Assembly: GCA_016188475.1 (NCBI GenBank)
Contig: JACPHT010000007.1
Coordinates: 80,467-144,466 of the forward strand
Source: Candidatus Uhrbacteria bacterium
GTDB taxonomy: Bacteria > Patescibacteriota > Patescibacteriia > UBA9934 > GWF2-40-263
Direction of reading: 5' to 3'
Length of the DNA stretch: 64,000 nt
Under the pieces are notes generated by a model. That model ran no database searches. It was not told the origin of the DNA and saw only the letters and a program-made list of their open reading frames with translations. Below, piece after piece: positions 3,775 through 57,016 of the stretch (within the stretch, counting starts at the first letter, position 1; every line of letters starts with the position of its first letter). The position numbers and the translations under genes were made by a program.

Positions 3775-4992
3775 TCACAGCCACTTTACTACTTCCCTAT
3801 AAATCCCCATCAGTCGACGGTAATGTTCGTCCAACCTAAATTTTTGTTCAACAGTTTGCCGTGCGGCGCACGACATTTGTTTTTGCAAATTCGAATCGTG
3901 AAACAATCTAATCACTGCTTCAGCCCAGCCATGCAAATGAGTCGGCTGAACTAAAAATCCGTTCACTCGATCTTCAACAATTTCCGAAACTCCTCCAACA
4001 TCGCTTGCGATAACTGGCTTGCCATATGACATAGCCTCAAGCGCAACAAGCGGAAATACTTCGTGCATTCGTGAAGGAATCAAAACAGCACATGCCTTTT
4101 CATAAATCTGACGTAACTCGTCTCCAGTTCTAAATCCCAAAAAGTGAACATTGGGAGCGTCGAGCGCCAAATTGTGAAGATATTCCATTTGCGGACCGCG
4201 ACCTACGATATTGAATGAAATGTCAGGAAGCAACTTCGCAATATGAATGATCGTATCTATTCCCTTTTCTTCACTTAACCGCCCAACAAAAAGAAACGAA
4301 CCATCGTGTGCAAAAACTGGTTGTACTCTGCTCGCATCAATGCCGTAGTGATTCACGCGTATTTTCTCGCTTGAAAATCCTCTAAGTATCATCTGACGTT
4401 TAATATAAGCAGATGGAGCAATAAAAATTGCCACGTGTTTTTCGTAGATTCGCAACAAACGATGAAACTTATACACCGCCGTTTGCGCGAATGAAGCCAA
4501 CATTGAATTTTTGTGAAAACGCGAAAACGTACCGCGCACAATTCCAACATTTCTAAAATCTTTTCCGCAACCTTCAGCCCAAATTCCGTATTGAGGTGAA
4601 ATCAAATGATGATCGTGCACTGTCATAACAACTGGAATTTTTTGATCTGAAAGCGTGTGTAAAATTGACGGAGAAATTTGGGTATAGATGTTGTGAATAT
4701 GACAAAGATCTGGTTTTTCATTTGCAATAAGTTCTGCTAGTTTTCGTCGAGCTGAAAGCGAATAAAACATGTGGCCAAAAGTGTGAAGACCATTCAAGTC
4801 CAATGTCACGTTTTCAGTTTGCACTTCAGATGGGAAATATTTCTCAAACGGAGTTTCGATATTTTCCGGATACTTCATAGCAAACGGGATCACCGTATGT
4901 CCTTGTTCTTCAAGCCAACTCGAAAGAGAGAGCATGTAAATTTCAGCTCCTCCGCGAGGATAATAAAATTTGTTGGCTTGGATAATTTTCAT
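3775..4992 (-). CDS. family 4 (GT4) glycosyltransferase
   Basis: EX7E motif EVFPLVALEAMSYGKPVIASDVGG; GT-B N-terminal Rossmann segment. Confidence 0.85.
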   Translation of the reverse strand: MKIIQANKFYYPRGGAEIYMLSLSSWLEEQGHTVIPFAMKYPENIETPFEKYFPSEVQTENVTLDLNGLHTFGHMFYSLSARRKLAELIANEKPDLCHIHNIYTQISPSILHTLSDQKIPVVMTVHDHHLISPQYGIWAEGCGKDFRNVGIVRGTFSRFHKNSMLASFAQTAVYKFHRLLRIYEKHVAIFIAPSAYIKRQMILRGFSSEKIRVNHYGIDASRVQPVFAHDGSFLFVGRLSEEKGIDTIIHIAKLLPDISFNIVGRGPQMEYLHNLALDAPNVHFLGFRTGDELRQIYEKACAVLIPSRMHEVFPLVALEAMSYGKPVIASDVGGVSEIVEDRVNGFLVQPTHLHGWAEAVIRLFHDSNLQKQMSCAARQTVEQKFRLDEHYRRLMGIYREVVKWL

Positions 4993-42429: not shown

Positions 42430-45400
42430 TCAAGGCACAGGACAATACTCAAATGTGATATTAGAAAAATTCATTGTTCCGGTTCCGTTGAAGATTGTCT
42501 GAATCGGCATCAAGGTTTGCTTGTTCTGACACGCGAAAGTTTCAGGCAAAGGCAATTCAACATTTTGACCGACAGGAGTAATGGAAGTTTCTGAACTTGA
42601 TTCTGTTCCCTTTGTCGCAGTAACTGTTGTTTTTGATTCCAAAACGGATTCGATTATTTTGTTATACATTCCCTTGATTCCGTCAGCCGTTGTAGCTTGA
42701 TATGCAAAGTTTCCTTCCGTGCAATCATTTTTGTCTGCCATTTCTTTACCTGCACATTTCAAACTAGACAAATGTTCCATGTAGGCAATTTGAGTTGTGT
42801 TATCAGATATAACTGCGGAATAAAAAGTGATGTCGCCTGACTTTATGTGATCAAAAATCATTCCGTCTGCATAACGAGCTTCTGCAATACAAGCCTCTGT
42901 TCCTTCATACGGGACCCATATTCCATCTTCCTTGTTGTAATTTTTTTTGTTGTCCCCAATCATTTTATTACACTTAAGTTTATCATCATTGTCATTTATA
43001 ATTGCTTTTTCTGGAGGATACTTACTGTAATCGCCCAAAGCGTGATTCGCTTCTCCGTCTGCTAATAAAATTACAAACTTTTGATTTTCCGGCGCTGATT
43101 GTTCATCAAGAATCTTTATGGCTTTTTGGATCGCGGAACCAGTCAAAGTCCAACCTCCAAAATTGTCTTTGTATGTGTCAATGATATTTTTAAGTGTTTC
43201 TTTGTTTCCAGGATTGTTCGGCACTAAACTCGTCTCAAGCTCTGGATGAAGCGCAATCACGTCGTCTTGAACATTGTGATTGTAGTCAACACCATATCCG
43301 TAAGTCACCAAACCGATTCTAATTTTTCCGTCAGTGCCTTGGTACGCATCATACAAGTCATCAATGGCTTGTTTTGCCGCTTCTGTCACAATATCAATTC
43401 GACGGTTTGGCGCACTTGCACTTTTTCCGTCTGGACCAAGTTTCATTGTTCCAGTTAAATCCGTCACAAACACAATATCAATGTTCGGTTCAGTCACGTT
43501 TGAATTATCAATGTTTGCCGTAATCTTTGTGCCAACACTGCAAGCAGGCAAAAGCAAAACAGCATTATCAGGCGATAATTTTTCTTTGTTGAAATAACTG
43601 TACAGATCAACACTTGGAAGCGGTTGAGCGCCGGAAAGTTCGCTTTGCACCAAAATTCCTGTTTTCTTCAGAGTGAACGGACACGAGCCAGAACAATCGC
43701 TCGCGCAAACAGGCGCTACGCACTGGCTGTCTGTTCCGCAAACGAATTTGTTTGCAGATGCGTTGTATTCCGCTGGTGTTTTGTTTGGTGGTTGAAGTGT
43801 ACACGGTTTGCCGTTATTAGCACCGCCATTACAAACACCCAAATATTGGCATGTGTATCCAGCACTGCAAGCGCCTGTCGGGCCTAATTTAAGCGCGTCA
43901 GATTTCGAACAATTTCCGGCTTTTACAGGTTCTGCTCCAGTATCATAATTAAAACACCAATACGGCTGATCATTACCATCACAAAATTCATTTCCGTTTT
44001 TAATTCCATCACCGCAATACGAACCGGACAAAGTCTTGTACTGACATTGCCAATTGCAATAATTACATGTGTTATCGTATGAAGCCTCGCAAGGATTCAA
44101 ATCGTTTGGCCCAACATTATCTATTCCGTTGTCGCACGCCTCAACTCCGCTATAAACATATTCATCGCCGCAAAAATTTTTCTTACAACCGTTTGTACAA
44201 CTGTCATTGTTAGATTTATTTCCATCGTCGCATTCTTCAGTTCCTTCTATTTTTCCATTACCGCAAACTTGATCCCCGCCTTGACAGGAAGAAAAACCGG
44301 GCCATGAACAATCGTTTTTACAAACGCGAGTTCGAGTGAGTTCGTATGTGAAATCTGAACATTTCTTGCTGCCACATTGGGCGTTGTTTGAACATGGAGT
44401 TCCGATATCATCTACACCCAAACATTTCGAGTTGTTACATTTTCCGCTTTCGCATTGATTATTATTGCCACACTGTTTCCCAACGTCTTTTGCTTCAACA
44501 CAAACTTTACTGCTTCCGCATGCTTGTTTTTGATTGCCACCACCGCAAGCTCCTGACGGACAATCGCTGTCAGTTTCGCAAGTTGTTTTATTATCAGTAC
44601 AAAGTTTCCCGGCCCATTGTTGTGACCCACCATCACACTCTTCCGGCCCGTTCACAATTTTGTCTCCGCATGAAAGCCCTGGTTGCTTACAATCGTACGT
44701 GCAAGTTTTACCCGGATCGTCACCATATTGCCCATTTGAAGACTCGCATGAATTTATCTTTGCCCAGCTCTGATTTCCAAGCGACGCAAAATTTTCAATT
44801 GAACCGCAATCGCATTGTTCACCACCTGCCAAATATCCATCTCCACACAAAAACGCTTTTGTAAATGTACAATCAGAACCGCAATGTCCGTAAGTTCCGT
44901 TTTGCGCTCCATCATCACATATTTCGCTTCCTTCAAGAACTCCGTTACCGCACGCAAAATCGATCTTAGGAGAACCAGCGGCTTGTGCTTCAGCAACAGT
45001 TTGATAATTTGAACAATCATCTTTACAAGAAACATTCACATATCCGTCAGAAAGATATTCCGCTTTGACTTGTCCTGGCTCGCAGGTTTCATTTTGTCCC
45101 ACAACTCCGTCTCCGCACACAGCTGAAATTCCCCAGCTTGCAGTGTCAGCGCAGAAAAGTGGATTTGAAACAAACCCTTTCGGAACTGCGGCAAGTCCGC
45201 TTAAGTATTCAGCGACAACTGTCACATCGTCTGTGTCAAATTGATCTATTGCAAAATTCCAAGGCGAATCACCGTATTCCAATTGAGTAAACAATTTGTA
45301 TTTTTCTCCGTATTTATTTTGATAACCATAAACATGCGATCCTTTTGGACAAACAAATTTTCCTTGCAATCCATTGAAGCAAGTCAATGGATCGAAGCCC

Positions 45401-48400
45401 TCGCCCTGCGACTTGCAACCTTGCCAGAACTCATCGATCGGATCTTTGGGTAATGTTGAACCAACCGCGTTTGATAAAACCGCGTTCCATGATTCCCATT
45501 TGCTTACACTCATTGCAGGAACATACGTTCCTTGTTGAACTTCAGGATATCCTTCAACACATGATTCAGTTCCAGGACACTGTGAGTCTGTTGAGCAACC
45601 TTGATTTTTTGTAACTGAACAATGTTTGTTTTGTGATCCATATTTGTTCAAAGCGGAAATTGTTGTTGTGATATCTGTCAATCTCTGCATGTCGTTTTGT
45701 AATTTTGATTTGTCATTATCACAAAACGCATTCTTAGCTGACGCGAGTGGACATTCAGCCGCTGACGCTGGTTTATTTTTTGTGATTGTACACTCATCGT
45801 TCTCAAACGTTTCCAAACATTCTCCATCCCAAGCGCAGTTTATAAAATCTCCTTCATCATTTTGTACATAAGAATTTCCGATCTTGCACAAACCAACATT
45901 ACTCACCTCTGTTGTGTTCGCGTTAAATTTCCAGTGATCAAAAATCTGCGCAAAAATTTCTTTGGCATCAGCTCCGGCGTTTGGATTATATGAAACAACG
46001 TAAATGTTTGGATAAATTACATTTCCATTTTTGTTCGCGGCAGTAATATAAGCTGTGTTTCCTGATTGAATAGCTTGATATCCGTCTATTTCTAATTCCT
46101 TGTAAGTTCCAGTAAATTTTTGCGACTCAAACCAAGCTATTGGTGAAAGATAATTTGGATTTTGAAACACGCGCACACCAATCGCGTCAGGAGTGCCTTG
46201 TACTTTGAAGAAAAGTTCTTGTAAAAGTCCGGCAGTCGCGACAGAAGTTACATCAACCGGATCAGCAAGCGAAGGAAGATCATCTGTTGTTCCATCTAAG
46301 CCGCGATCTCTACAATAATAGAAACCAAAGTTAGATGGTTTTGTTGGGTCTGTTTTTTCAATGTATGGAAATCCGAGTGTGGAATTCAAAGCAGGCCATG
46401 GATTTTCGCAAACAAGAGCCGTAACCTCAAGCGATCCCGATGTCTGCTTTCCAGATGTTGTTGGAACATTAAATGTGTCTTTGTTAATTTTCGCAGTCGC
46501 TATTACATGTTCAAGTCCATTATTGCCGACAGATGAAAATTTTGACTTTTCAAGTTTACCGATATCGCCATTTGCAAGATCAACTATATTTTCGGACTTG
46601 CCAGTTGCGTATGAAGAACCCCAATCCCAAGTCCACGAGTAACTTAATGTTGTGTTGATCGGCTCATAAACTCCGAGCCCGTCGCGATATGTTAAAGCCT
46701 GCGCTTCAAACTCGTGCGTTTCATCTTTCTTTGAAAAGAAACCTGAACTTGCTGATTCATATTGTTGTTTATTGACTTTTCCGTTGTCTGCAACACTCAC
46801 TGAATCAAGCAAACATACTTGTGATCCGATTTTGAATTGATTTGTTGTTGAACCGAATTCGCACGTATTTCCAATACACAAACCAACTCCGTTTTCGCTT
46901 AAAACTCCAAAAGGTGTTCCGTCTGAAGTGTTTTTGTCACCGACAATTATTAGCTGATATTCTGAATCTTTTTCCAAAAGATCGTTGTATTCAAGCACGA
47001 TTTTTTGACCGCCGGATATGTCAACGGTTTTGAAAGTCACAGGCGCAAGACATTTATTCCCAGCGGCTGAAACATCTTTTCCAAACAAATTCCAAAATCC
47101 ATTTTTCAAAACACTCCAAATTTTCGCAAACAAGCCTGAAGGCGCTTCTCCGCTTGTTACAAATTGATAGTTCGACGGACAAAGAGACGGGTTGGCATAA
47201 ATGTACTTTCCGTTTTTTGCAAACAGCTCAAGTCTGATATTTGAAATTTCTCCGTTGTCAATCTTTCCATTGTTGTTTTTGTCAACAGCGCCAAATGTTT
47301 TTGGATCCATTTTCTGATCAAACTGAACTGACACTGCTGTGTTTCGACAATATCCCTGATTTCCTGGACCGTTTCCAGACGGCGGTTGATAAGGCGGTTT
47401 CTTCTTCGGACGCACAAAACAACAACTTCCTGATCCGCATCCGAGCTTTGTTGTATCTCCGCACGCCTGATCCGACTCGCACGAACAATCAACTTTCAAA
47501 GTCGCGTCACCTTTCACATTTTCTGCTTCAGCGGTGATAGTCGAAACAGCATAACCTGTTGTTTTATCAACTTCTTTTGGGGCATTGTTGTTGATTTGCG
47601 CCGCGGCATATCCGCCTATCGCAAGCGACTGACCGGCTGATACATCACATTCTTCGCTAGTTTGAATTTTACCATCGCCGCAAAATGACGGAGGGTCATA
47701 TTGCGCTGACGCGCCTTCATTCAAACACTTGGCGTTGCAACCATCGCCGGATTTATTATTGCCGTCATCGCACTCCTCTCCTTTTCCAATCTTGCTATCG
47801 CTACAAAATGACGGGGTTCCGTACTCTAATGAAGCGCCTTCGTCAAGACATTTTTCACTGCATCCGTCTCCTGAAACCGCATTGCCATCATCACAGTCTT
47901 CTCCAGATTCGACTTTTGAATTTCCGCATTTTGAAAAAACATTTTCTTTCGCGATCGCACCTTCAAACAAACATTGGCTTGAACAACCGTCACCGTTTTT
48001 TGTATTTCCGTCATCACAATCTTCACCTCCTGTTTGAGGTGAAAAGTCAACGGTTCCATCTCCACAAGTTGCGCCAACTGAAGACGAACCATTATTTAAA
48101 CATGTCGAGCCGCATCCGTCGCCTGAAACAGTATTCCCGTCATCGCATTGTTCTCCAGCGTCAACAATTTTATTTCCGCAAGTTAAAGACGATCCTTCTT
48201 TCAAACAACTTGAGGAACATCCGTCTCCAGAGTTTGTATTTTTGTCATCGCATTCTTCAGCTTCATTTTTTCCATCTCCGTTGTAATCGACAATTCCATC
48301 TCCGCAAACCGCTTGCGTGTGTTTAATTGTTGCGCCAGCATTCAAGCATTGCGATGTACACCACTCTGGAAGCGACGTTGCAAGTTCGATTGCTCCATTT

Positions 48401-51400
48401 TGCAACATAAACGCCACATCCTGCGCTGTTCCTCCTTGAGCGGCTTTATAATTGTCAGGAGTGTCTTTTGATGTCCACGCGTTCCAAGTGTAACTTGAAT
48501 TCTGTAAAGCCTGTCCGGAAGCGTCGCAATCATCTGGCGCGCCGTAAGTTGTCGCGTTGTATTCTTGTTTTTGTCCGACGTAATTTAATGTTTTCAAATC
48601 TGGAGAAACATTGATTGAATCAATACCGCAACTTATATCAGAATTTTTTGTTTTGAATTTCCACGAAAAATCCGTGCCATAATTCGCGCCAGAATCTTTT
48701 AACGGAACATTGGAAGTTGACTTGATTGAAGAACCATTCAAAACAATTCGATACCATGTGTTCGCGGCCATTACTGAACCTGCTTTATAATCAACAAACA
48801 AAGTTTTGGTTTCTTTGTTGTAAGTAACGTTTTGAATCAAATCTGTTTTTTTAAGCTCATTCGCCTCGCAAATAGAATCTTCACACTCATAAAGCGTTAC
48901 CGCAGAAGCTGCAACAGTTGATGGATCAATATCTGTATTGAAACGCGCCCAAGGCTGTGCGTTCACGCAAGCTGTTGAACAATTTGGGAAAAACGCGTCA
49001 ACTTTTGGATCGCTAAAATCGATTTTCAAATCTCCAGTATCCTTTGGTTTATTTACGGCGTTTGTAACTTCAGCTTTAATCTTTGCAGGATTTCCTTTTG
49101 TCTCTTCTGTTGCTTTAACTTTTGAAGAACACAGTGCAGTGCCAACTGTCGGGTCTTGCACGGTTGCGCCAGGAAAATTTGATGACCAATCGATTGTTTG
49201 TCCATCGCATGAAATTGTGAGACATTGATGCTCTTTAGAAATTAACTGCGATGTGTAACCAACACTTTGATCGTCAACTGTTGCTGTAAAATCTGCTGGT
49301 GAAACATTCACTCCGCCGACTTCGCACAATTCATTTTGACCTGCTGTTCTGAAATCCCAAACATAATCCTTTTCCATGAACGCGCCGCCAACAGCATCAC
49401 TCGCGCGCACTCCGCCCTGACCTCCTTTCACAGTCACTTTGATATAAGCCGCTTGAGGAAGCAATTCCGAAGGTGTCCATGTAAACGCTATTTCGTCCGT
49501 CATTAACGAACCGTCGAGTTTTTGCCATGCTTTACAACTTCCATCAGATTTTTCCTCATTACATTTTTCAACAACAATGTTATCCGGCAATGACGTCTGA
49601 TCCATTTGTTTTGTAAATGCCGCAGTAACAACCGCGTTCAAACAAACCGATGACGAACCTTCCCAGTTTTTCCACGGACTTGGAGAAATTGTTTTATCAT
49701 CGCATGCGACTTTTATTGTTGGAGCTTCTGGAATTAAACCGGTTGAAACGCGATACGCAAAATGTGATTCTTTTGGCTTAAGACTGCAATCAGCTTGATT
49801 TGATTTACACGAACCATCATCGCAACAGAATGTGTTGGTCGGACAAGCAAAATTATTTTGACAATCTCCAACAGCAAAATTTACAGAGTTCGAAGTGTAA
49901 CCGGCTTGAGTTGTTGCGAAAACCGGCCCTGTTTTTGCTTGCGCTGGAACCAAAGCATCGGTCACTTTTGTATTTTCCCAAATGATGTAACCGGCTGATT
50001 GTTTGTCAAAAAATGTAACTGTTCCATCTTTAGTTCCCAAATTTTCTCCATAAGCTGTTACAAGTGTTTCAACAGGACCTGCAACAGGATCAAGTTTACA
50101 AACCGCAGGACCTGGAGCGCCGTCAACAATTACAAAATCAACACCGTTTGAAACCTCACCATCTTGACGTTTTAGCGAAAGTTTATATGCGCCAAAGACA
50201 ATTTGATCTCCAAATTCATTCGCGATTTGAAATTCTTCCGGAACTTTTACGATAACTGATGTGTTGTTCCAAAATTGATTGCCGCATTGCGCTGGAAATT
50301 GCGTGTCTCCAAGAGCCAACTTTCCAAGACCGCTTGTAAAATTCACTTGACCTTTCGATGTTCCAAAATCAGTTCCATAAATTGTCACGTATTGTCCGGC
50401 TGGTCCCCAATTTGGCGCTGATTCGCATTTCCCTCCTCCACACGTGTCGTCTTTCGCGCAGACTTTTCCATTGTTCACTCCACCACTACACGCTTTCCAA
50501 CCAGTTTCGACGTATGAAATGTTTGGTTTGGTTTCTGCTTTTGCGGAATCTAAAACAGCAAACGCAAGTTTGTTCGATCCAACACGAACTGAAACGCATT
50601 TTCCGTCTCCTTCAGCGCAAACTTTATTCGCAGAACAATACGCCAGTGTTTCACTGCACCAAGAAGTCGCGCACGAGTTCCCTGCTCCGCAATCACTATC
50701 TTGCGCACACAATTTTCCAGTTTCCTTTCCAACTGCGTCAATACATCGATAATCTCCGGTGAACGCTTGTGTGCTTACATTGCCAGATGACATGTTTGGC
50801 ACAACAGCCTTAACTTGTGTGTCAAGCCAAGCTGAATATCCAGCTGAAAGAAAATCTTTGAAATAAATGACTGACGACCCTTGCTTTGCTCCAAGTCCAA
50901 GTCCAGAAAAAGTTGTTCCTGTCGCGCTCTCGCCTTTTACAGGATCAACATCGCAAAGTCCCGGACGTTTCACAGCGTTTACATCAAAATCAGACGATAG
51001 CGGACCAAACGCATCGTTTGTTTTATCTTTTTTAACATCAGGTCCGGCTGTTGCAACTTCAATCGGCCCATCTTTTGCTCCAACTGGAAGTTGAACAACA
51101 ATCTCTTTGTCGCTCCATTTTGTTTTTCCATTGCAAGAATAAGCAGAAACACTCTTGCTTTCTTCAGGTTTGGATCCAAGAAATGTTATGTTTCCTCCAA
51201 CAGCGCCAAATCCCAAACCTTTGATTGTTACTAAACTTCCGATAGCGCCATCGCCCGGTGAAACAGAATCAATGCGAGGTTTGCTTACACAAACTTCATT
51301 TTCACACACAAGTCCTGGCGAGCATTCTGCTGTTTGTCCACACGTATCTGCCACACATTTGCCGCAATAAAAAACATTTGTTGGATCACCACCGCAGTTC

Positions 51401-52581
51401 ACTCCTGTTTCACCAAATTCTTCGTCAATCTCTGTATTGTCACAGTTTGCGGCTTTAACAACAGCTGAAATTTTTGTTGCTGTTGCTTTGTTGCCTGCGC
51501 AATCAAACGCAGAAGCCCAAAGAGGATAACTTTTGTTTGTAACGTATCCGATTGTGTCCCATTCAACATTCTCGTCTGTTGAAAAAATGTTTACCGTGTT
51601 GTTTCCAACAAGTTTTTGACTGGTTGACAGATCAAGTCCTGATGAATAAAGCGCTTCATCATCACTTACTGAGTAAAAATCTACACTTGAAACTCCTGTG
51701 TCGTCTTTTGTTTCGGCTTGCAAAATCTGAATCGTTCCAACAATAACGGATTGTCCATTCGTTGGAGTTTTCATGCTGATTGTCGGACCTTTTACATCAA
51801 CTCCATCGCCTGTTGTGAAAGAAAATTCATTCAGATTTCCAAACGTACTAAGTTCTGCGCCACTTGTTGACTTAAGAGCGGAATTGATCTTAAGCTCATA
51901 TTCCGTGTTTGCTGCAAAGCAATGCGATGTTGTATTTGGCGCCGGACAAAAAGCGGCTGGAGTGAATTTGACCACGCTTCCTTTTGTTGCAAAAGTTCCA
52001 TCAACCGCGTTTCCACCTTTTTGTTTGATTGTAATTCCTTCTGAAATTGTTGAAGCATTAACGTTCTTTGAAAAAACAAGTTGGAGCTGAAGATTTCGAA
52101 TAGCACTCGCGCATTCTGTATTAACTGAATTGAGTTTGAACGAGGAAAGTGTCCCGTTGTCTGGATACGAACCTCCGCCTCCGCCTGTCCCTGTTGTAAC
52201 ACCCACTCCTGTTGTTTCAATAAGTTTGCCAATAATAAATTGGACTATTCCAAATGATGCCAAAACAATTATCAGTCCAACAATCGCCTGGCTTAAAATC
52301 TTTTTTGCTGTTTCAAGCCGTTTTGTGTTGCCGGCAGAGGTCATGTATAAAAATCCAGCGTAAACAATCATGGCAACCGCAATTATTCCAACAAAACTTA
52401 TTGCTGTTCTGATCAATCGAGCGATGATGAGCTGAATCGAAGGACCTGTTGCAAATCCGGCGTTTTGCGCGAACTCTTTCAAATCAACTCCTTGAGCAAA
52501 AACAGGAACAGCAACAATGAGCCCAACGCTCACAAGCGCGAGAATAAAACCTGACAGAAATGATTTATATTGATGTTTCAT
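42430..52581 (-). CDS. giant (3,383 aa) surface protein: VirB2/TrbC-pilin-like two-helix N-terminus, Ig-like/IPT regions, 6+ tandem Myxococcus-type cysteine-rich repeats (CGDG..ECDDGN..GDGCS..C), C-terminal vWA domain
   Basis: Uninterrupted 10.15-kb ORF. Repeats CGDGIVDYNGDGKNEAEECDDKNTNSGDGCSSSCL x6. vWA with DLTGT...LTGSAIQ...LLADGEAN. N-terminal LIIARLIRTAISFVGIIAVAMIVYAGFLYMTS. Confidence 0.85.
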   Translation of the reverse strand: MKHQYKSFLSGFILALVSVGLIVAVPVFAQGVDLKEFAQNAGFATGPSIQLIIARLIRTAISFVGIIAVAMIVYAGFLYMTSAGNTKRLETAKKILSQAIVGLIIVLASFGIVQFIIGKLIETTGVGVTTGTGGGGGSYPDNGTLSSFKLNSVNTECASAIRNLQLQLVFSKNVNASTISEGITIKQKGGNAVDGTFATKGSVVKFTPAAFCPAPNTTSHCFAANTEYELKINSALKSTSGAELSTFGNLNEFSFTTGDGVDVKGPTISMKTPTNGQSVIVGTIQILQAETKDDTGVSSVDFYSVSDDEALYSSGLDLSTSQKLVGNNTVNIFSTDENVEWDTIGYVTNKSYPLWASAFDCAGNKATATKISAVVKAANCDNTEIDEEFGETGVNCGGDPTNVFYCGKCVADTCGQTAECSPGLVCENEVCVSKPRIDSVSPGDGAIGSLVTIKGLGFGAVGGNITFLGSKPEESKSVSAYSCNGKTKWSDKEIVVQLPVGAKDGPIEVATAGPDVKKDKTNDAFGPLSSDFDVNAVKRPGLCDVDPVKGESATGTTFSGLGLGAKQGSSVIYFKDFLSAGYSAWLDTQVKAVVPNMSSGNVSTQAFTGDYRCIDAVGKETGKLCAQDSDCGAGNSCATSWCSETLAYCSANKVCAEGDGKCVSVRVGSNKLAFAVLDSAKAETKPNISYVETGWKACSGGVNNGKVCAKDDTCGGGKCESAPNWGPAGQYVTIYGTDFGTSKGQVNFTSGLGKLALGDTQFPAQCGNQFWNNTSVIVKVPEEFQIANEFGDQIVFGAYKLSLKRQDGEVSNGVDFVIVDGAPGPAVCKLDPVAGPVETLVTAYGENLGTKDGTVTFFDKQSAGYIIWENTKVTDALVPAQAKTGPVFATTQAGYTSNSVNFAVGDCQNNFACPTNTFCCDDGSCKSNQADCSLKPKESHFAYRVSTGLIPEAPTIKVACDDKTISPSPWKNWEGSSSVCLNAVVTAAFTKQMDQTSLPDNIVVEKCNEEKSDGSCKAWQKLDGSLMTDEIAFTWTPSELLPQAAYIKVTVKGGQGGVRASDAVGGAFMEKDYVWDFRTAGQNELCEVGGVNVSPADFTATVDDQSVGYTSQLISKEHQCLTISCDGQTIDWSSNFPGATVQDPTVGTALCSSKVKATEETKGNPAKIKAEVTNAVNKPKDTGDLKIDFSDPKVDAFFPNCSTACVNAQPWARFNTDIDPSTVAASAVTLYECEDSICEANELKKTDLIQNVTYNKETKTLFVDYKAGSVMAANTWYRIVLNGSSIKSTSNVPLKDSGANYGTDFSWKFKTKNSDISCGIDSINVSPDLKTLNYVGQKQEYNATTYGAPDDCDASGQALQNSSYTWNAWTSKDTPDNYKAAQGGTAQDVAFMLQNGAIELATSLPEWCTSQCLNAGATIKHTQAVCGDGIVDYNGDGKNEAEECDDKNTNSGDGCSSSCLKEGSSLTCGNKIVDAGEQCDDGNTVSGDGCGSTCLNNGSSSVGATCGDGTVDFSPQTGGEDCDDGNTKNGDGCSSQCLFEGAIAKENVFSKCGNSKVESGEDCDDGNAVSGDGCSEKCLDEGASLEYGTPSFCSDSKIGKGEECDDGNNKSGDGCNAKCLNEGASAQYDPPSFCGDGKIQTSEECDVSAGQSLAIGGYAAAQINNNAPKEVDKTTGYAVSTITAEAENVKGDATLKVDCSCESDQACGDTTKLGCGSGSCCFVRPKKKPPYQPPSGNGPGNQGYCRNTAVSVQFDQKMDPKTFGAVDKNNNGKIDNGEISNIRLELFAKNGKYIYANPSLCPSNYQFVTSGEAPSGLFAKIWSVLKNGFWNLFGKDVSAAGNKCLAPVTFKTVDISGGQKIVLEYNDLLEKDSEYQLIIVGDKNTSDGTPFGVLSENGVGLCIGNTCEFGSTTNQFKIGSQVCLLDSVSVADNGKVNKQQYESASSGFFSKKDETHEFEAQALTYRDGLGVYEPINTTLSYSWTWDWGSSYATGKSENIVDLANGDIGKLEKSKFSSVGNNGLEHVIATAKINKDTFNVPTTSGKQTSGSLEVTALVCENPWPALNSTLGFPYIEKTDPTKPSNFGFYYCRDRGLDGTTDDLPSLADPVDVTSVATAGLLQELFFKVQGTPDAIGVRVFQNPNYLSPIAWFESQKFTGTYKELEIDGYQAIQSGNTAYITAANKNGNVIYPNIYVVSYNPNAGADAKEIFAQIFDHWKFNANTTEVSNVGLCKIGNSYVQNDEGDFINCAWDGECLETFENDECTITKNKPASAAECPLASAKNAFCDNDKSKLQNDMQRLTDITTTISALNKYGSQNKHCSVTKNQGCSTDSQCPGTESCVEGYPEVQQGTYVPAMSVSKWESWNAVLSNAVGSTLPKDPIDEFWQGCKSQGEGFDPLTCFNGLQGKFVCPKGSHVYGYQNKYGEKYKLFTQLEYGDSPWNFAIDQFDTDDVTVVAEYLSGLAAVPKGFVSNPLFCADTASWGISAVCGDGVVGQNETCEPGQVKAEYLSDGYVNVSCKDDCSNYQTVAEAQAAGSPKIDFACGNGVLEGSEICDDGAQNGTYGHCGSDCTFTKAFLCGDGYLAGGEQCDCGSIENFASLGNQSWAKINSCESSNGQYGDDPGKTCTYDCKQPGLSCGDKIVNGPEECDGGSQQWAGKLCTDNKTTCETDSDCPSGACGGGNQKQACGSSKVCVEAKDVGKQCGNNNQCESGKCNNSKCLGVDDIGTPCSNNAQCGSKKCSDFTYELTRTRVCKNDCSWPGFSSCQGGDQVCGNGKIEGTEECDDGNKSNNDSCTNGCKKNFCGDEYVYSGVEACDNGIDNVGPNDLNPCEASYDNTCNYCNWQCQYKTLSGSYCGDGIKNGNEFCDGNDQPYWCFNYDTGAEPVKAGNCSKSDALKLGPTGACSAGYTCQYLGVCNGGANNGKPCTLQPPNKTPAEYNASANKFVCGTDSQCVAPVCASDCSGSCPFTLKKTGILVQSELSGAQPLPSVDLYSYFNKEKLSPDNAVLLLPACSVGTKITANIDNSNVTEPNIDIVFVTDLTGTMKLGPDGKSASAPNRRIDIVTEAAKQAIDDLYDAYQGTDGKIRIGLVTYGYGVDYNHNVQDDVIALHPELETSLVPNNPGNKETLKNIIDTYKDNFGGWTLTGSAIQKAIKILDEQSAPENQKFVILLADGEANHALGDYSKYPPEKAIINDNDDKLKCNKMIGDNKKNYNKEDGIWVPYEGTEACIAEARYADGMIFDHIKSGDITFYSAVISDNTTQIAYMEHLSSLKCAGKEMADKNDCTEGNFAYQATTADGIKGMYNKIIESVLESKTTVTATKGTESSSETSITPVGQNVELPLPETFACQNKQTLMPIQTIFNGTGTMNFSNITFEYCPVP

Positions 52582-52665: not shown

Positions 52666-54471
52666 TCACTTTACATTCCCCGGCAATGTGCCCGGTTCAT
52701 ACAATGTCTTACACGCGACAGCAGACGGCGATCCATTACAACAATACGGTTTACTTGAATTTGTTCCGTCACACGCGCCGCCAACTTGCATTGAAGGATA
52801 CATACAAATTTGATACGCGCTTTTTAGACCGTTTGTTACAACAGGATAATAATCATATCCGCCTTCAGCATTGCTTATAAAAGCAGGATGTCCAATTAGC
52901 ACTTTGGTTGTTTTTGCGTCAACATTATCTTCCTTATTTGATGAAAACCACATTGAATAAAGTGGATCCGGCCAAACAGAAACATTTGAACTATTCACAG
53001 TCGAGCCTTTCAGAAGTGTGCTGAATGCAATTTCAAGCGGTGCGTTTTGATCAATCTCTTGACCTCCAATTTCAGGTTTTAACGAAACAATTTTTGGAAC
53101 AGTGTCATTGATCGCGTCTGTTGTGTTGAACGACCAAGAGTAATTATCATTCAAAGCATTGTTTGCGCAAACTGCCAAATCTTTTTCTGATCCACAAGCT
53201 TTCCCATCTCCATTTCCATCAAGCGAATTTCCTGACGCGTCAGTCAATCCATCATATGAAACTCCAATAAGTTGCGCTTGCGGGGGATTGGAATTATCTA
53301 GTGTCGCCGCCTTGCCAGTGACACTCAAATCAGCGGTTGCTGGCAAGCAATAAATCACATCACCGCAGGGATCTTTTGAACACGCGTCAGTGCTTGTAAA
53401 CCCAACTGTTTTGTATCCATTGCTAATTTCATATGTTCCCTGAACATTTCCGGCAACATCTTTTTGAGTAATCGCGATGTTTGTAAATAATGGATTTTTT
53501 TCATCAATATAAGAACCTGTTGAAGACACTGGGTCCATTGCTTCATTGAATGTCATTTCTACAGTCACATTACGCGGTTCTTCTGACGAATTATTTGGAA
53601 TCACAGAAACAACTTTTGGCGGAGTGAGATCGATTTCTGTTGAAACCTCAAACGTCCATCCATATCCGGAGGAATAAGCTCCAACAAAAGCATTTGAGCC
53701 GTTTGCTTTTTTGATTCCTGGTTGAAGCGCGACAGTATAATTCGTGTCCGATGTTGGATTGCCAAGAAGATCAACGGGATCAAAAACGTAAATTGTATTC
53801 TGTTCGTTTGTCACAACTTTTACAGCATCCGTCCCGAGTTTTTTGTCTTTTCCTTTTGCTGTTTCAAAAATATAGACATTCGTGTTGTTAAGTCCGCTCT
53901 CGCCAGAAATGATGGATTTTGGATCTACGGCTTCTTTGAATGTAACGAAAATTTTTGTATTGCGAGGAATTTCAACCGCGTTGCGGGGAGGATAATGGCT
54001 TTCGACAATTCCTGCGCCAAGCGCGCCGGCAAGCGGTTCTTTATATTTTTCAATTACAGCCTTTGAAACAATCTGACCGGAAGTCGCGCCCAAAATCGCA
54101 TTTATGACAAACAACGCGATCGCGTATGAAGAAAAAATAATTAAAACTCCGATTGTTGCCTGAGTGATGATTTTTTTCGCCTTTTCCGTTTTTCCTGCTT
54201 CGCCTTGCGAAGTCATGTACAAAAATCCGGCGTACAGAACAAGAAGAACAAAAATGATTCCTAAAATTCCAAGAAAAGCGCGAATTAAACGCGCGATTAT
54301 TAGGATAATGTTTGTTTGTGGCAAACCAGATGCTTCGGCAGAAGTTTGAAGAAAATCCGTTTGCGCAAAAACAGGATGAGCAAGTCCGAAGAAAACAAAA
54401 ACGCACAGCACGCCAAAGCCTGCCGCGTAAACGGCAAATGAACGCAAGTATGTCCGACTATTATCGGTCAT
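52666..54471 (-). CDS. 601-aa surface protein, paralog of the giant protein N-terminus (pilin-like two-helix module + Ig-like domains)
   Basis: N-terminal IILIIARLIRAFLGILGIIFVLLVLYAGFLYMTSQGEAGKTEKAKKI parallels the giant protein. Confidence 0.8.
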   Translation of the reverse strand: MTDNSRTYLRSFAVYAAGFGVLCVFVFFGLAHPVFAQTDFLQTSAEASGLPQTNIILIIARLIRAFLGILGIIFVLLVLYAGFLYMTSQGEAGKTEKAKKIITQATIGVLIIFSSYAIALFVINAILGATSGQIVSKAVIEKYKEPLAGALGAGIVESHYPPRNAVEIPRNTKIFVTFKEAVDPKSIISGESGLNNTNVYIFETAKGKDKKLGTDAVKVVTNEQNTIYVFDPVDLLGNPTSDTNYTVALQPGIKKANGSNAFVGAYSSGYGWTFEVSTEIDLTPPKVVSVIPNNSSEEPRNVTVEMTFNEAMDPVSSTGSYIDEKNPLFTNIAITQKDVAGNVQGTYEISNGYKTVGFTSTDACSKDPCGDVIYCLPATADLSVTGKAATLDNSNPPQAQLIGVSYDGLTDASGNSLDGNGDGKACGSEKDLAVCANNALNDNYSWSFNTTDAINDTVPKIVSLKPEIGGQEIDQNAPLEIAFSTLLKGSTVNSSNVSVWPDPLYSMWFSSNKEDNVDAKTTKVLIGHPAFISNAEGGYDYYPVVTNGLKSAYQICMYPSMQVGGACDGTNSSKPYCCNGSPSAVACKTLYEPGTLPGNVK

Positions 54472-54510: not shown

Positions 54511-55551
54511 TTACAAAGAGATAATAGGAAGAGTGTGGATAGACGTTAACTTTTGTTTCAATTTTTTTGCGTTTCCATGACCTAACAGTCCAAAATAAGA
54601 TTGAAACGTTTCTTTTGTTGGATGCGACTCAATTCTCTGTAACATCCGTCGTCTTGTTACTGTTCGTAATGTTCGATGATCCGTAAAATGAACCCAACCG
54701 AGAAAATCAACGCCGGAGGTAAAAGTCTTCAAAAAAATCTTGTTTGGATGAAGTGTTAAATGAAGATCAAACAGTAAAAAGGAACGTATTGCTGGAATCA
54801 AAGACTTGAGAGATGTTTTGTCATCAGAGAGAAAAACAAAATCATCAGCATAACGAACATAGTGTTTGATATGAAGTTTGTGTTTCACAAATTGATCAAA
54901 CTGATTCATATAGATATTTGAAAAAAGTTGTGATGTGAGATTGCCAAGCGGAAGTCCGATATTCCGCTTATTTTTTGTTTCAAAACTTCCGATGATTTTT
55001 TCAAGAAGCCATATGATGTTTTTGTCTGGGATATACTCTCCAAGGATACGAATCAAAATTCTGTGATCAATACTCCAAAAAAATTGTTTAATATCGCATT
55101 TCAAGACCCAACACGTTCGAGTGTGATTCTGACTAACTTGATAAGCAAAAGCCCGAAATCTGTCGACCGCTTTATGTACTCCCTTCTCGTTTCGACATGA
55201 AAATGAATCGCTTATGAATGTCTTATCGAAAAACGAATACAATATGCGATATAATGCCCGATGTAATGTGCGATCTCGTACTGACGCTTTGTGAATTAAA
55301 CGACGTTTTGGATCTGTGATGACAAATGATTCGTATTTTGAATGTCTGTATGTCTTGTTTTTCAAATCTCTATGTAAATCCAGAAGATTATCCATCAAAT
55401 ACAACTCGAACTCCTGTATGTCTTTTCTTGACCGCTTACCAACAACAAATTCACTCCAAGCACAAAGTAAATTCTCTATCGATATTATCTCTTCAAATGT
55501 ATGATCGAACAAAATTTTGGACACGCAACTAAGTGTACCCCCCCCCCCCAA
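54511..55551 (-). CDS. diversity-generating retroelement (DGR) reverse transcriptase
   Basis: RT motifs with the DGR-diagnostic LPLGNLTSQLFSNIYMN (I/LGxxxSQ) and VRYADDFVFL. N-terminal LFDHTFEEIISIENLLCAWSEFVVGKRSR. ORF-track start is TTG inside a C12 tract; the GTG at 55524 is an alternative. Confidence 0.85.
   Translation of the reverse strand: MGGGGTLSCVSKILFDHTFEEIISIENLLCAWSEFVVGKRSRKDIQEFELYLMDNLLDLHRDLKNKTYRHSKYESFVITDPKRRLIHKASVRDRTLHRALYRILYSFFDKTFISDSFSCRNEKGVHKAVDRFRAFAYQVSQNHTRTCWVLKCDIKQFFWSIDHRILIRILGEYIPDKNIIWLLEKIIGSFETKNKRNIGLPLGNLTSQLFSNIYMNQFDQFVKHKLHIKHYVRYADDFVFLSDDKTSLKSLIPAIRSFLLFDLHLTLHPNKIFLKTFTSGVDFLGWVHFTDHRTLRTVTRRRMLQRIESHPTKETFQSYFGLLGHGNAKKLKQKLTSIHTLPIISL
55538..55549. 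repeat. C12 homopolymer (G12 on the minus strand) at the 5' end of the RT ORF, in the RT/avd divergent region
   Basis: cccccccccccc read directly from the sequence. Confidence 0.9.
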
Positions 55552-55593
55552 CGATTTTTACCGGTTTTAAGTAAAGTCAAGGAGTCGTACCTT

Positions 55594-55920
55594 TTGTGGT
55601 ACAAATTTTATCAGGACTTACCCAAAGTACATCGTCATTCTCTCGGTCAGCGCATTGATACTTTATTTGTTGAAGTGATTGAAGCGATATCGGCCGCCAG
55701 TTTTCTCTCACCGGCGGAGAAACATCCGTATGTTCGTCTCGCGATCAAAAAAGCGGACACCTTGCGCGTACTTCTTTTGGTGCTTTGGGAAACGAAATCT
55801 CTTGATGACAAAAAATACATTGCTCTTTCCGTAAAGTTGGACGAAGCCGGAAAAATGCTTGGCGGTTGGAACGGCCAGCTCGCAAAACAAAACTCTCCAG
55901 CGAAAGCCGGAGAGAAATGA
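55594..55920 (+). CDS. candidate DGR accessory variability determinant (Avd-like four-helix-bundle protein), divergent from the RT
   Basis: TTG start 9 nt after a perfect SD aaggag. LPKVHRHSLGQRIDTLFVEVIEAI resembles the bAvd / four-helix-bundle family (FPKEE.YGLTSQIRRA.VSIPSNI). Basic, 109 aa. The opposite-strand orientation is unusual. Confidence 0.45.
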   Translation: MWYKFYQDLPKVHRHSLGQRIDTLFVEVIEAISAASFLSPAEKHPYVRLAIKKADTLRVLLLVLWETKSLDDKKYIALSVKLDEAGKMLGGWNGQLAKQNSPAKAGEK

Positions 55921-55926
55921 AGAGAG

Positions 55927-56059
55927 TTGCGACACGGCGAACGCGAACCCGTTGTCACGATTCCACCTGTTGTCAGGCCTGTCGTTGTACGCGTTGAGCC
56001 AGCGACCATCGTCGTTACGGTTCGCGTTCAGCAAGTTCGGATCGCCGTCGGATTGCGCG
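55927..56059 (-). repeat. DGR template repeat (TR)
   Basis: 133 bp matching VR (56399-56531). All 14 internal mismatches are at minus-strand adenines. The minus-strand frame is AAC-rich (LNANRNDDGRWLNAYNDRPDNRWNRDNGFAFAV). Confidence 0.85.
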
Positions 56060-56300: not shown

Positions 56301-56344
56301 TATGAAAAAATTTAGCCCTGCTCCGACGGATCGGAACAGGGCTA
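56301..56344 (-). terminator. terminator of the DGR target gene (tagccctg-17 nt loop-cagggcta + T-run on minus strand)
   Basis: 8-bp stem with an internally palindromic loop. Lies about 60 bp downstream of the stop codon. Confidence 0.6.
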
Positions 56345-56359
56345 AGGGCTAAGTTCAAA

Positions 56360-56398: not shown

Positions 56399-56531
56399 TT
56401 GCTACACGGCGAACGCGAACCCGTGGGCACGATTCCACCTGTCGGCAGGCCTGCCGTCGCACGCGCTGAGCCAGCGACCATCGCCGTAACGGTCCGCGCT
56501 CAGCAAGTCCGGAGCGCCGTCGGAGTCGTTG
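56399..56531 (-). repeat. DGR variable repeat (VR) at the 3' end of the target gene
   Basis: Encodes ...LSADRYGDGRWLSACDGRPADRWNRAHGFAFAV*. The 3' 25 nt (cacggcgaacgcgaaccc) has no adenine on the coding strand and is identical to TR (IMH-like). Confidence 0.85.
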
Positions 56532-57016
56532 ATGGGTTCGTGCATTGCGACGATCCACCACAGACCCATGGCTTCGATCTCCTTGTCCGTGAACTTCTCA
56601 CGGATGAGGCAGGCCAGTTCGGCGTTCGGCTTCGAGAGCTTGCGCTTGTCGGCCTCGGCGCGAATCTTCTTCGTGATCCGGTCGTTGCCCTCGAAGAGCA
56701 TGCCCTTGAGAACGGCGACTTCGGTCGTCACGCCGCTCGTCGGCTTGAAGTCCGGCGAACGGAGCACTTGCTTGGCGTAGTCGCCCACGCGGAAGCCTTT
56801 GCTCTCGAGTCGGGTGATCCAGTCCTCGCCGGTCGTGCCATCGCTGGTGACCGAGAAGTAGAGGACGCCGTCTTCCTCGCGCCACGAACGGATCGGTTCG
56901 GAAACCGAGAGTTCGTCGCGGAGAAAACGGAGCGCCATGTAATGGCCACCGAGCTTCTTCACGATGGCATTCAGTTGGCCGGCAGTGAGGTCGGAGGATG
57001 CGAATTCTTTGCTCAT
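56402..57016 (-). CDS. DGR target protein (204 aa) with C-type-lectin/FGE-like variable C-terminus; no signal peptide detected
   Basis: Strong SD aaggagac. C-terminal GLWW...DGRW...RWNR..GFAFAV matches the CLec-fold VR pattern. GC about 62%. Confidence 0.8.
   Translation of the reverse strand: MSKEFASSDLTAGQLNAIVKKLGGHYMALRFLRDELSVSEPIRSWREEDGVLYFSVTSDGTTGEDWITRLESKGFRVGDYAKQVLRSPDFKPTSGVTTEVAVLKGMLFEGNDRITKKIRAEADKRKLSKPNAELACLIREKFTDKEIEAMGLWWIVAMHEPINDSDGAPDLLSADRYGDGRWLSACDGRPADRWNRAHGFAFAV

Follow-up and report, generated by a model that had tools for sequence, protein, structure and literature searches.

In the diversity-generating retroelement (DGR) of Bordetella phage BPP-1, which has the order mtd-avd-TR-brt, avd is co-directional and lies upstream of the template repeat (TR), a spacer RNA is found between the TR and brt, the gene for the reverse transcriptase (RT), and cDNA synthesis needs Avd together with the RT. 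Here we analyse a DGR in a 64,000-nucleotide stretch of a Candidatus Uhrbacteria contig (JACPHT010000007.1), the whole of which we refer to as the window. The element is complete, with a target gene and its variable repeat (VR), a TR, a reversed avd and an RT gene arranged around a run of 12 cytosines (C12) that lies in the 5′ coding region of avd. Like the phage DGR, it has an RT, an Avd with the helix-bundle fold, TR/VR differences that are specific to adenines and a VR at the 3′ end of the target gene. Unlike in the phage DGR, avd is reversed, a terminator-like hairpin follows the TR within the 3′ end of avd, and avd carries a repeat at its 5′ end. From a comparison of related loci we consider it rather likely that C12 is a contingency-locus repeat that would switch Avd, and hence diversification, by slipped-strand mispairing, with the window in the ON state.

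The simple sequence repeat (SSR) contingency loci of Haemophilus, Neisseria and Campylobacter have poly-G/C or tetranucleotide repeats directly behind the start codon, and some H. influenzae contingency genes have leader ATGs in different frames. The avd repeat is likewise a non-triplet repeat within the first 5–20 codons, and two related loci (L055 and L066) resemble the H. influenzae multi-start genes in having two leader ATGs in different frames upstream of the array. Differences in copy number and frame between related strains are also shared with the known loci, as is N-terminal enrichment (PMC3315296). Lin and Kussell (PMC3315296) name an N-terminal position as the signature of phase-variation repeats under selection, and the avd repeat, being N-terminal, non-triplet and contrary to codon bias, matches the signature of selection set out in that study. 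Whereas the known loci are mostly surface or restriction-modification genes of host-adapted pathogens, the gene in question here encodes the cofactor of a mutagenic RT in environmental bacteria of the candidate phyla radiation (CPR). A further known mechanism of phase variation uses homopolymers in promoter spacers, as in B. pertussis fim and N. meningitidis porA and opc.

The gene order itself has been described. In the searched passages of Wu et al. 2018 (PMC5758913), the name B3 is given to the architecture TR-(avd)-RT in which avd is reversed, and 90% of their CPR set is assigned to it. The order and strands in the window fit this definition and, as far as those passages go, order, strands and the upstream target/VR are all identical, leaving no difference in layout. 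For comparison we used 54 loci with related RTs from GTDB genomes, nearly all of them metagenome-assembled genomes (MAGs) of Patescibacteria/CPR; RT homologs were found in the same cassette in >50 loci. VR, TR and RT share one strand in the related loci and avd lies between TR and RT throughout; wherever the flank of a related locus was long enough, avd was found reversed and either abutting or overlapping the 5′ end of RT. Since B3 is published, in the passages cited, and is shared by these relatives, the layout, which the initial annotation had called atypical, is a known one that is typical of the CPR group. The searched passages of PMC5758913 make no mention of the overlap between the 5′ ends of avd and RT, of a repeat at this junction or of the hairpin after the TR. 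Full-text literature searches, which covered Wu et al. in part and did not extend to the CPR DGR survey of Paul et al. 2017, found no repeat in avd, no phase-variable DGR component and no SSR contingency locus in Patescibacteria. DGRs, Avd, the B3 layout and SSR phase variation are thus already known, and the junction repeat is apparently new.

The C12 tract occupies positions 55538–55549 (G12 on the RT strand). It is uninterrupted, as first annotated, and is the longest homopolymer in the window; it is also the only G/C run of at least 7 nt in the 64 kb, all other runs being A/T and at most 8 nt long. The tract encodes T-P-P-P-(Q) at avd codons 13–17, after codon 12 and before the first helix of the protein, in a leader that is predicted to be disordered, and its length of 12 leaves avd in frame. 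The run is at odds with local codon usage. Among the proline codons of the window's own genes CCC is the rarest (6 of 206, 2.9%), no other Pro-Pro pair in these genes uses CCC-CCC, and the probability of ACC-CCC-CCC-CCC given the peptide TPPP, estimated from codon usage in neighbouring genes, is ∼1.6e-6. As the tract lies in the 5′ coding region, changes in its length shift the frame of avd, and as the segment that it encodes is predicted to be disordered, variable length should be tolerated there.

This placement depends on where avd and RT begin. The initial annotation had the tract in an intergenic gap of ∼40 bp between two divergent starts, TTG 55551 for RT and TTG 55594 for avd. Neither start could be upheld, and the two coding sequences (CDSs) instead overlap head to head by 24 nt (55501–55524), as read from the sequence and from the homologous starts of relatives, with C12 inside avd. 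For RT (54511–55524, minus strand), the relatives have an ATG 6–7 codons before a conserved histidine, in the motif M-[PS]-K-I-x-[FL]-x-H, and the window has GTG 55524 at this position, giving a protein of 337 aa. TTG 55551, with its N-terminal M-GGGG, is a product of extending the open reading frame (ORF) to the first possible start, and relatives start elsewhere. On the RT strand the tract therefore belongs to the proximal 5′ leader, 13 nt upstream of the start codon and outside the RT CDS. The avd frame is open from ATG 55501 to 55920 on the plus strand (139 aa). The avd ATG is antisense to His8 of RT, and the RT GTG is antisense to His8 of Avd.

Four lines of evidence place the avd start at ATG 55501. 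The NCBIfam Avd profile aligns from its own first position at residue 20 of the 139-aa ORF. Hundreds of Avd homologs were found, many of them 137–142 aa long and spanning 100% of the ORF, with the N-terminal consensus ML.LN..H..PP.RILPVL.KVKE.YLLW. The first predicted helix covers residues 21–37. Variation at the three codon positions is 0.38/0.20/0.54 in residues 20–31 and 0.32/0.19/0.49 in the undisputed body of Avd; residues 20–31 thus vary by codon position as the body does, which indicates that they are translated. The window has no start codon after the repeat and before residue 32, so with coding constraint directly after the repeat, translation must pass through it. The AAGGAG and TTG on which the first reading of avd had relied (55579–55596, plus strand) correspond to codons K27-E28 and L32. 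TTG 55594 was rejected as the main start given the profile alignment, the extent of helix 1 (11 of whose 17 residues it would delete) and the codon-position variation in residues 20–31. The TTG codon is also not conserved in relatives, being CTC in L001, for example.

The proposal that the plus-strand ORF ending at 55920 is Avd-like has been borne out. Against NF033474 (NCBIfam DivGenRetAVD) it scores 57.9 bits (cut-off 80, E=1e-15) and against PF22296 (Pfam bAvd) 39.3 bits (cut-off 40, E=1e-9), in both cases below the curated threshold, and its database homologs carry precomputed PF22296 matches; on sequence it is a significant but divergent member of the family. An AlphaFold2 (AF2) model of the 139-aa protein, built from the homolog alignment, has a pLDDT of 83.7 and four long helices (residues 21–37, 48–66, 71–97 and 103–131) after a disordered leader at residues 1–19. 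Foldseek matched this model to the Avd of Bordetella phage (bAvd, 4dwl) with a TM of 0.91, an rmsd of 1.5 Å and an identity of ∼15%, so that the expected four-helix bundle was recovered, and also to the Avd chains of 8ub7, the bRT-Avd ribonucleoprotein.

The choice of start has a wider consequence. In four related loci (L075–L078), avd has been called as a 108-aa gene from the internal TTG, behind a strong AAGGAG, although an ORF of 137–139 aa is in frame. Callers likely choose the TTG because the true start overlaps RT on the other strand, and public Avd annotations in this clade are systematically truncated. We had considered called Avd length (108 versus 137–142 aa within 90% clusters) as a proxy for OFF and ON states; it was dropped because these four in-frame loci are still called as 108 aa. 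Gene callers often truncate avd at the internal TTG, and DGR surveys that infer activity from intact genes would misjudge out-of-frame alleles.

Repeats at the avd/RT junction are widespread among the relatives. A simple repeat lies between the avd leader ATG and helix 1 at 53 of 61 non-redundant junctions: 41 are mononucleotide, 3 dinucleotide, 8 tetranucleotide and 1 heptanucleotide repeats. All 53 therefore have units of 1, 2, 4 or 7 nt, and none has a unit of 3 or 6 nt. The types seen are C7–C13, (CT)6–7, (CA)13, (AACC)2 to ∼13, (AATC)10 and (AATCAGC)3. In the first set of related RTs these were mostly poly-C tracts of 7–13 nt on the avd strand, together with three (CT)n/(CA)n repeats and one (AATCAGC)3; protein matches also imply 7-nt repeats. 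In 43 genome loci, G/C runs of at least 8 nt occurred ∼35 times at the junction and once elsewhere in ∼312 kb, where the automated counts of 28 and 8 were corrected by reassigning 7 of the latter 8 to the junction from their coordinates. The repeat is kept at this one site down to 48% RT identity. Where a repeat was lacking, 5 of 7 junctions had an in-frame ATG, including one in which the tract is interrupted (CCCTCCC, L074).

The closest relatives, obtained from an exact-protein look-up and one metagenome pattern scan, have an Avd body 91–100% identical to that of the window, and the type of repeat at this site, its copy number and the frame vary among them. They carry (AACC)2, 3, 8–9, 11 or 13, (AATC)10, C9, C10 or an interrupted C-tract. 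Avd is in frame with C10 (L070) and with (AACC)2, 11 and 13, and out of frame with C9 (L057 and L062) and (AACC)3. L066 has (AATC)10 where L069 has (AACC)13, despite flanks that are 95–97% identical. Upstream of the tetranucleotide arrays of L055, L066, L071 and L073 there are ATGs in two frames (ATGATG... and ...AATGGTGGC), an arrangement that could make two of the three repeat phases translatable.

In the mechanism that we favour, slipped-strand mispairing during replication would add or remove Cs and so shift the avd frame after its short disordered leader. Full-length Avd would then be made only from permissive tract lengths, of which the window's 12 would be one. Given that cDNA synthesis in the Bordetella phage system requires Avd, switching Avd would gate diversification of the target, turning it on and off in a heritable, reversible and stochastic manner. 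Three points are inferred: tract length would have to change at a high rate inside populations, alleles that are out of frame would have no functional Avd, and the state of the repeat would control DGR activity. The phase variability suggested in the initial annotation thus has strong comparative support in a form different from that first put forward, since the tract lies in the 5′ coding region of avd and not between the genes, and falls outside the RT CDS.

Several observations weigh against a contingency switch. C12 is also the consensus in two further assemblies of this strain, which match the window at 100% identity over 3.9 kb, and the same length in three assemblies implies that any switching is too slow to alter the consensus between samples. 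Invariance of tract length, which had been proposed as evidence against phase variation, was thus found within the strain at consensus level, and not across relatives. Identical long arrays recur in independent datasets (L063/L068 and L066/L071), and most of the flank-matched comparisons are between lineages and not within populations. Homopolymers are error-prone in short-read assemblies, and in L017 a scaffold gap (an N-run) lies directly beside the C10 tract at ∼4000–4010. The conserved avd leader overlaps the 5′ end of RT, so RT coding accounts for part of that conservation. The window's subclade has an internal TTG that is preceded by a strong Shine–Dalgarno (SD) sequence and might yield truncated Avd; in the window itself such a product may be made, the TTG not being the main start. 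Finally, among 40 poly-C junctions with a leader ATG, the Avd body is in the +1 frame in 24, in frame in 11 and in the +2 frame in 5. This 24:11:5 distribution differs from the expectation for a symmetric ON/OFF random walk (chi-square against uniform, p=8e-4; +1 against +2, p=5e-4; conservative test, p=0.004; all of these statistics ignore phylogeny). The excess of alleles with one C too many could reflect insertion-biased slippage, populations that are mostly OFF or leaky +1 decoding on CCC-C.

The repeat might chiefly control RT, as a promoter spacer or as a 5′-leader or SD-like element that tunes RT transcription or translation. We regard this reading, which comes close to that of the initial annotation, as fairly unlikely, although it could coexist with an avd switch. 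Between the end of the repeat and the RT start lie a median of 16 nt (13 nt in the window). Several relatives share with the window a −10-like hexamer that begins where the repeat stops and leaves 7 nt to the start codon, as in G12-TACACT-TAGTTGC-GTG (window) and G10-TATAAT-CTGTCAT-ATG (L016); the 12 Gs with 5 more nucleotides would make a 17-nt spacer. A G/C run of ∼12 nt beside a −10-like hexamer and upstream of the gene is shared with the fim, porA and opc promoters, which serve as precedents. Here, however, the repeat lies in a CDS on the other strand, and arrays of 8–52 nt, (AACC)2 to 13, in close relatives would be intolerable in a promoter spacer. The −10-like hexamer is missing in many loci, the spacing between the RT start and avd helix 1 varies, and a scan of the junction with the sigma-70 consensus found no promoter for avd or RT. 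The complete lack of 3n units is explained by a switch of coding frame and not by a spacer.

It is unlikely, too, that the site is simply a neutral mutational hotspot, caused by head-on divergent transcription or local DNA structure, with a dispensable leader, an Avd made from another start and tract lengths that have no regulatory meaning. The leader is indeed disordered and poorly conserved, gene callers favour the internal TTG, and the consensus tract length is stable within the strain. Such a hotspot is hard to reconcile with the constraint on residues 20–31, which form part of helix 1 and which no start between the repeat and residue 32 could supply in the window. A hotspot within a CDS should also favour 3n units or be purged, whereas every one of the repeats is non-3n; moreover, the C run opposes codon usage, and the repeat persists at one site down to an RT identity of 48%.

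The skew towards +1 alleles speaks for programmed recoding, in which out-of-frame avd would be expressed because tRNA-Pro slips by +1 on CCC-C in the ribosome, with poly-proline stalling as an aid, or because RNA polymerase slips. We consider recoding improbable, and give the same low weight to its corollary that an allele with one C too many is a functional, low-expression allele. CCC-C with tRNA-Pro in the P site is a +1-prone site, 24 of the 40 poly-C junctions are exactly +1 and only 5 are +2 (the p value of 5e-4 takes no account of shared ancestry), and the +1 loci usually have no alternative in-frame start upstream of the tract. Recoding fails, however, for those junctions whose repeat is (CA)n, (CT)n, tetranucleotide or heptanucleotide, and tracts of 9–13 nt far exceed what a ribosomal shift site needs. 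By eye, neither a zero-frame stop nor an obvious stimulator was seen after the tract in L001, L013 and L016. When transcription slips at homopolymers, the outcome is mostly insertion, in A/T runs (PMC5574713), whereas rescue of the +1 alleles by RNA polymerase would need a one-base deletion in a C run, and this route was disfavoured accordingly.

A broader scheme would combine these elements, making the repeat a conserved master switch of CPR DGRs with several settings: it would set the avd frame and also act as RT promoter spacer or leader, +1 alleles would be leaky through a tRNA-Pro slip on CCC-C, and hypermutation would be set to high, low or off by a second hypermutable element independent of the first. 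We hold this to be a long shot. That the homopolymer or its length is a sequencing or assembly artefact is very improbable indeed: homopolymers of at least 10 nt are error-prone, an N-gap adjoins the tract in L017 and some MAG contigs, judged from their names, have very low coverage, but the length is exactly 12 in three independent assemblies, a tract occupies the same site in >40 unrelated assemblies from different pipelines, and the long tetranucleotide arrays are reproduced across independent datasets (the L063/L068 and L066/L071 pairs). As a separate observation, L081 and L082, two contigs from the same strain, stop at the TR boundary (window ∼55912), before the VR; assemblies appear to break at the SSR and at the TR/VR repeat.

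The rest of the cassette has the features expected of a working DGR. The target gene (56402–57016, minus strand; 204 aa in the ORF list) has no Pfam or NCBIfam match, and the VR forms its 3′ end (56402–56524, minus strand). The TR lies at ∼55927–56052 on the minus strand, its sense strand being that of RT, with the same order and strand in related loci. TR and VR form a pair of ∼125 nt that is 90% identical, with all mismatches at TR adenines on the minus strand; adenine-only differences are likewise found in the related loci with a detected TR/VR pair. The RT ORF is intact and matches Pfam RVT_1 with E=2.6e-24, exceeding the cut-off. We conclude that the locus is a complete and apparently active DGR of a Patescibacteria/CPR genome in the B3 arrangement, its activity being predicted from these parts.

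With avd and TR on opposite strands, the initial annotation expected TR transcription to be antisense to avd. A hairpin, CTCTCCGGC-TTTC-GCTGGAGAG, followed by the U-run TTTTGTTTTG, lies 13 nt 3′ of the TR (55914–55883, minus strand). It has a 9-bp stem and is antisense to the last avd codons, which encode KQNSPAKAGEK. A hairpin of this kind is present after the TR in 42 of 55 related loci; the opposite strand has one in 4 of 55 and shuffled sequences in 7 of 55. Its 22 different stem hexamers show clear compensatory changes. The Avd tail KQNSPxKxGEK, apparently conserved and predicted to be disordered, is the antisense reading of the hairpin and U-run. The hairpin is probably a terminator of the TR RNA or a 3′ structural element of the DGR RNA, and the TR RNA is probably a discrete transcript of ∼390 nt that would overlap avd by only ∼38 nt. 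A discrete RNA ending at the hairpin would largely remove the antisense problem. The candidate TR transcript folds modestly better than shuffles (z=−2.3), and an Rfam search of the cassette, including this transcript, returned no family.

Upstream of the TR on the same strand, a consensus scan found a GC-rich 15-bp hairpin with a T-run (56312–56345, minus strand) ∼57 nt after the VR. It could be the target-gene terminator or a counterpart of the inverted repeat that follows the initiation of mutagenic homology (IMH) in other DGRs. Adjoining it is a promoter-like site, TTTTCA-17-TATAAT (56308–56280, minus strand), with 10 of 12 consensus matches. This is the only promoter match in the region, where shuffles give ∼1, and we note it, on weak evidence, as a candidate promoter for the TR RNA.

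The base composition of the target gene is distinctive, at 60–64% GC within a context of 33–44% GC. In the window the values are 60% for the target body, 70% for the VR, 59% for the TR and 35% for RT, and the clade medians, taken over the targets of 18 related loci, are 55% (target) and 39% (RT). The GC-rich island of target, VR and TR, beside an AT-rich RT, could result from A-depletion by spreading mutagenesis or from a separate origin of the target module.

Directly downstream of RT are genes for a 601-aa protein with a Big_5 domain and a giant protein of 3383 aa (52666–54471 and 42430–52581, respectively, minus strand). In the larger protein an N-terminal pilin-like/transmembrane segment is accompanied by many Cys-rich DGNxxxGDGC repeats and, according to Pfam, a VWA domain, and the N-terminal hydrophobic leaders of the two proteins are alike. 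Both may serve a CPR episymbiont at its cell surface or in attachment to a host. Exact-protein look-ups with the window Avd, a 252-aa neighbour and P0122 gave no match. Several MAGs titled ‘uncultured Gammaproteobacteria bacterium’ (L001, L002, L004, L005, L013 and L042) carry a CPR-type DGR whose RT is 60–76% identical to that of the window, which suggests mislabelled or contaminated bins. Only 2 relatives were found among viral contigs, so the cassette is not obviously phage-borne.

How DGRs are regulated is a major open question, since unrestrained mutagenesis of the target is costly. If C12 and its counterparts act as contingency repeats, a whole clade of DGRs in Patescibacteria/CPR, which have more DGRs than any other group, would have placed an essential cofactor under a stochastic and heritable repeat switch. 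Only a subpopulation would then diversify its target at any one time, with one hypermutable element governing another, and the biology of contingency loci would reach beyond host-adapted pathogens to environmental, ultra-small bacteria.

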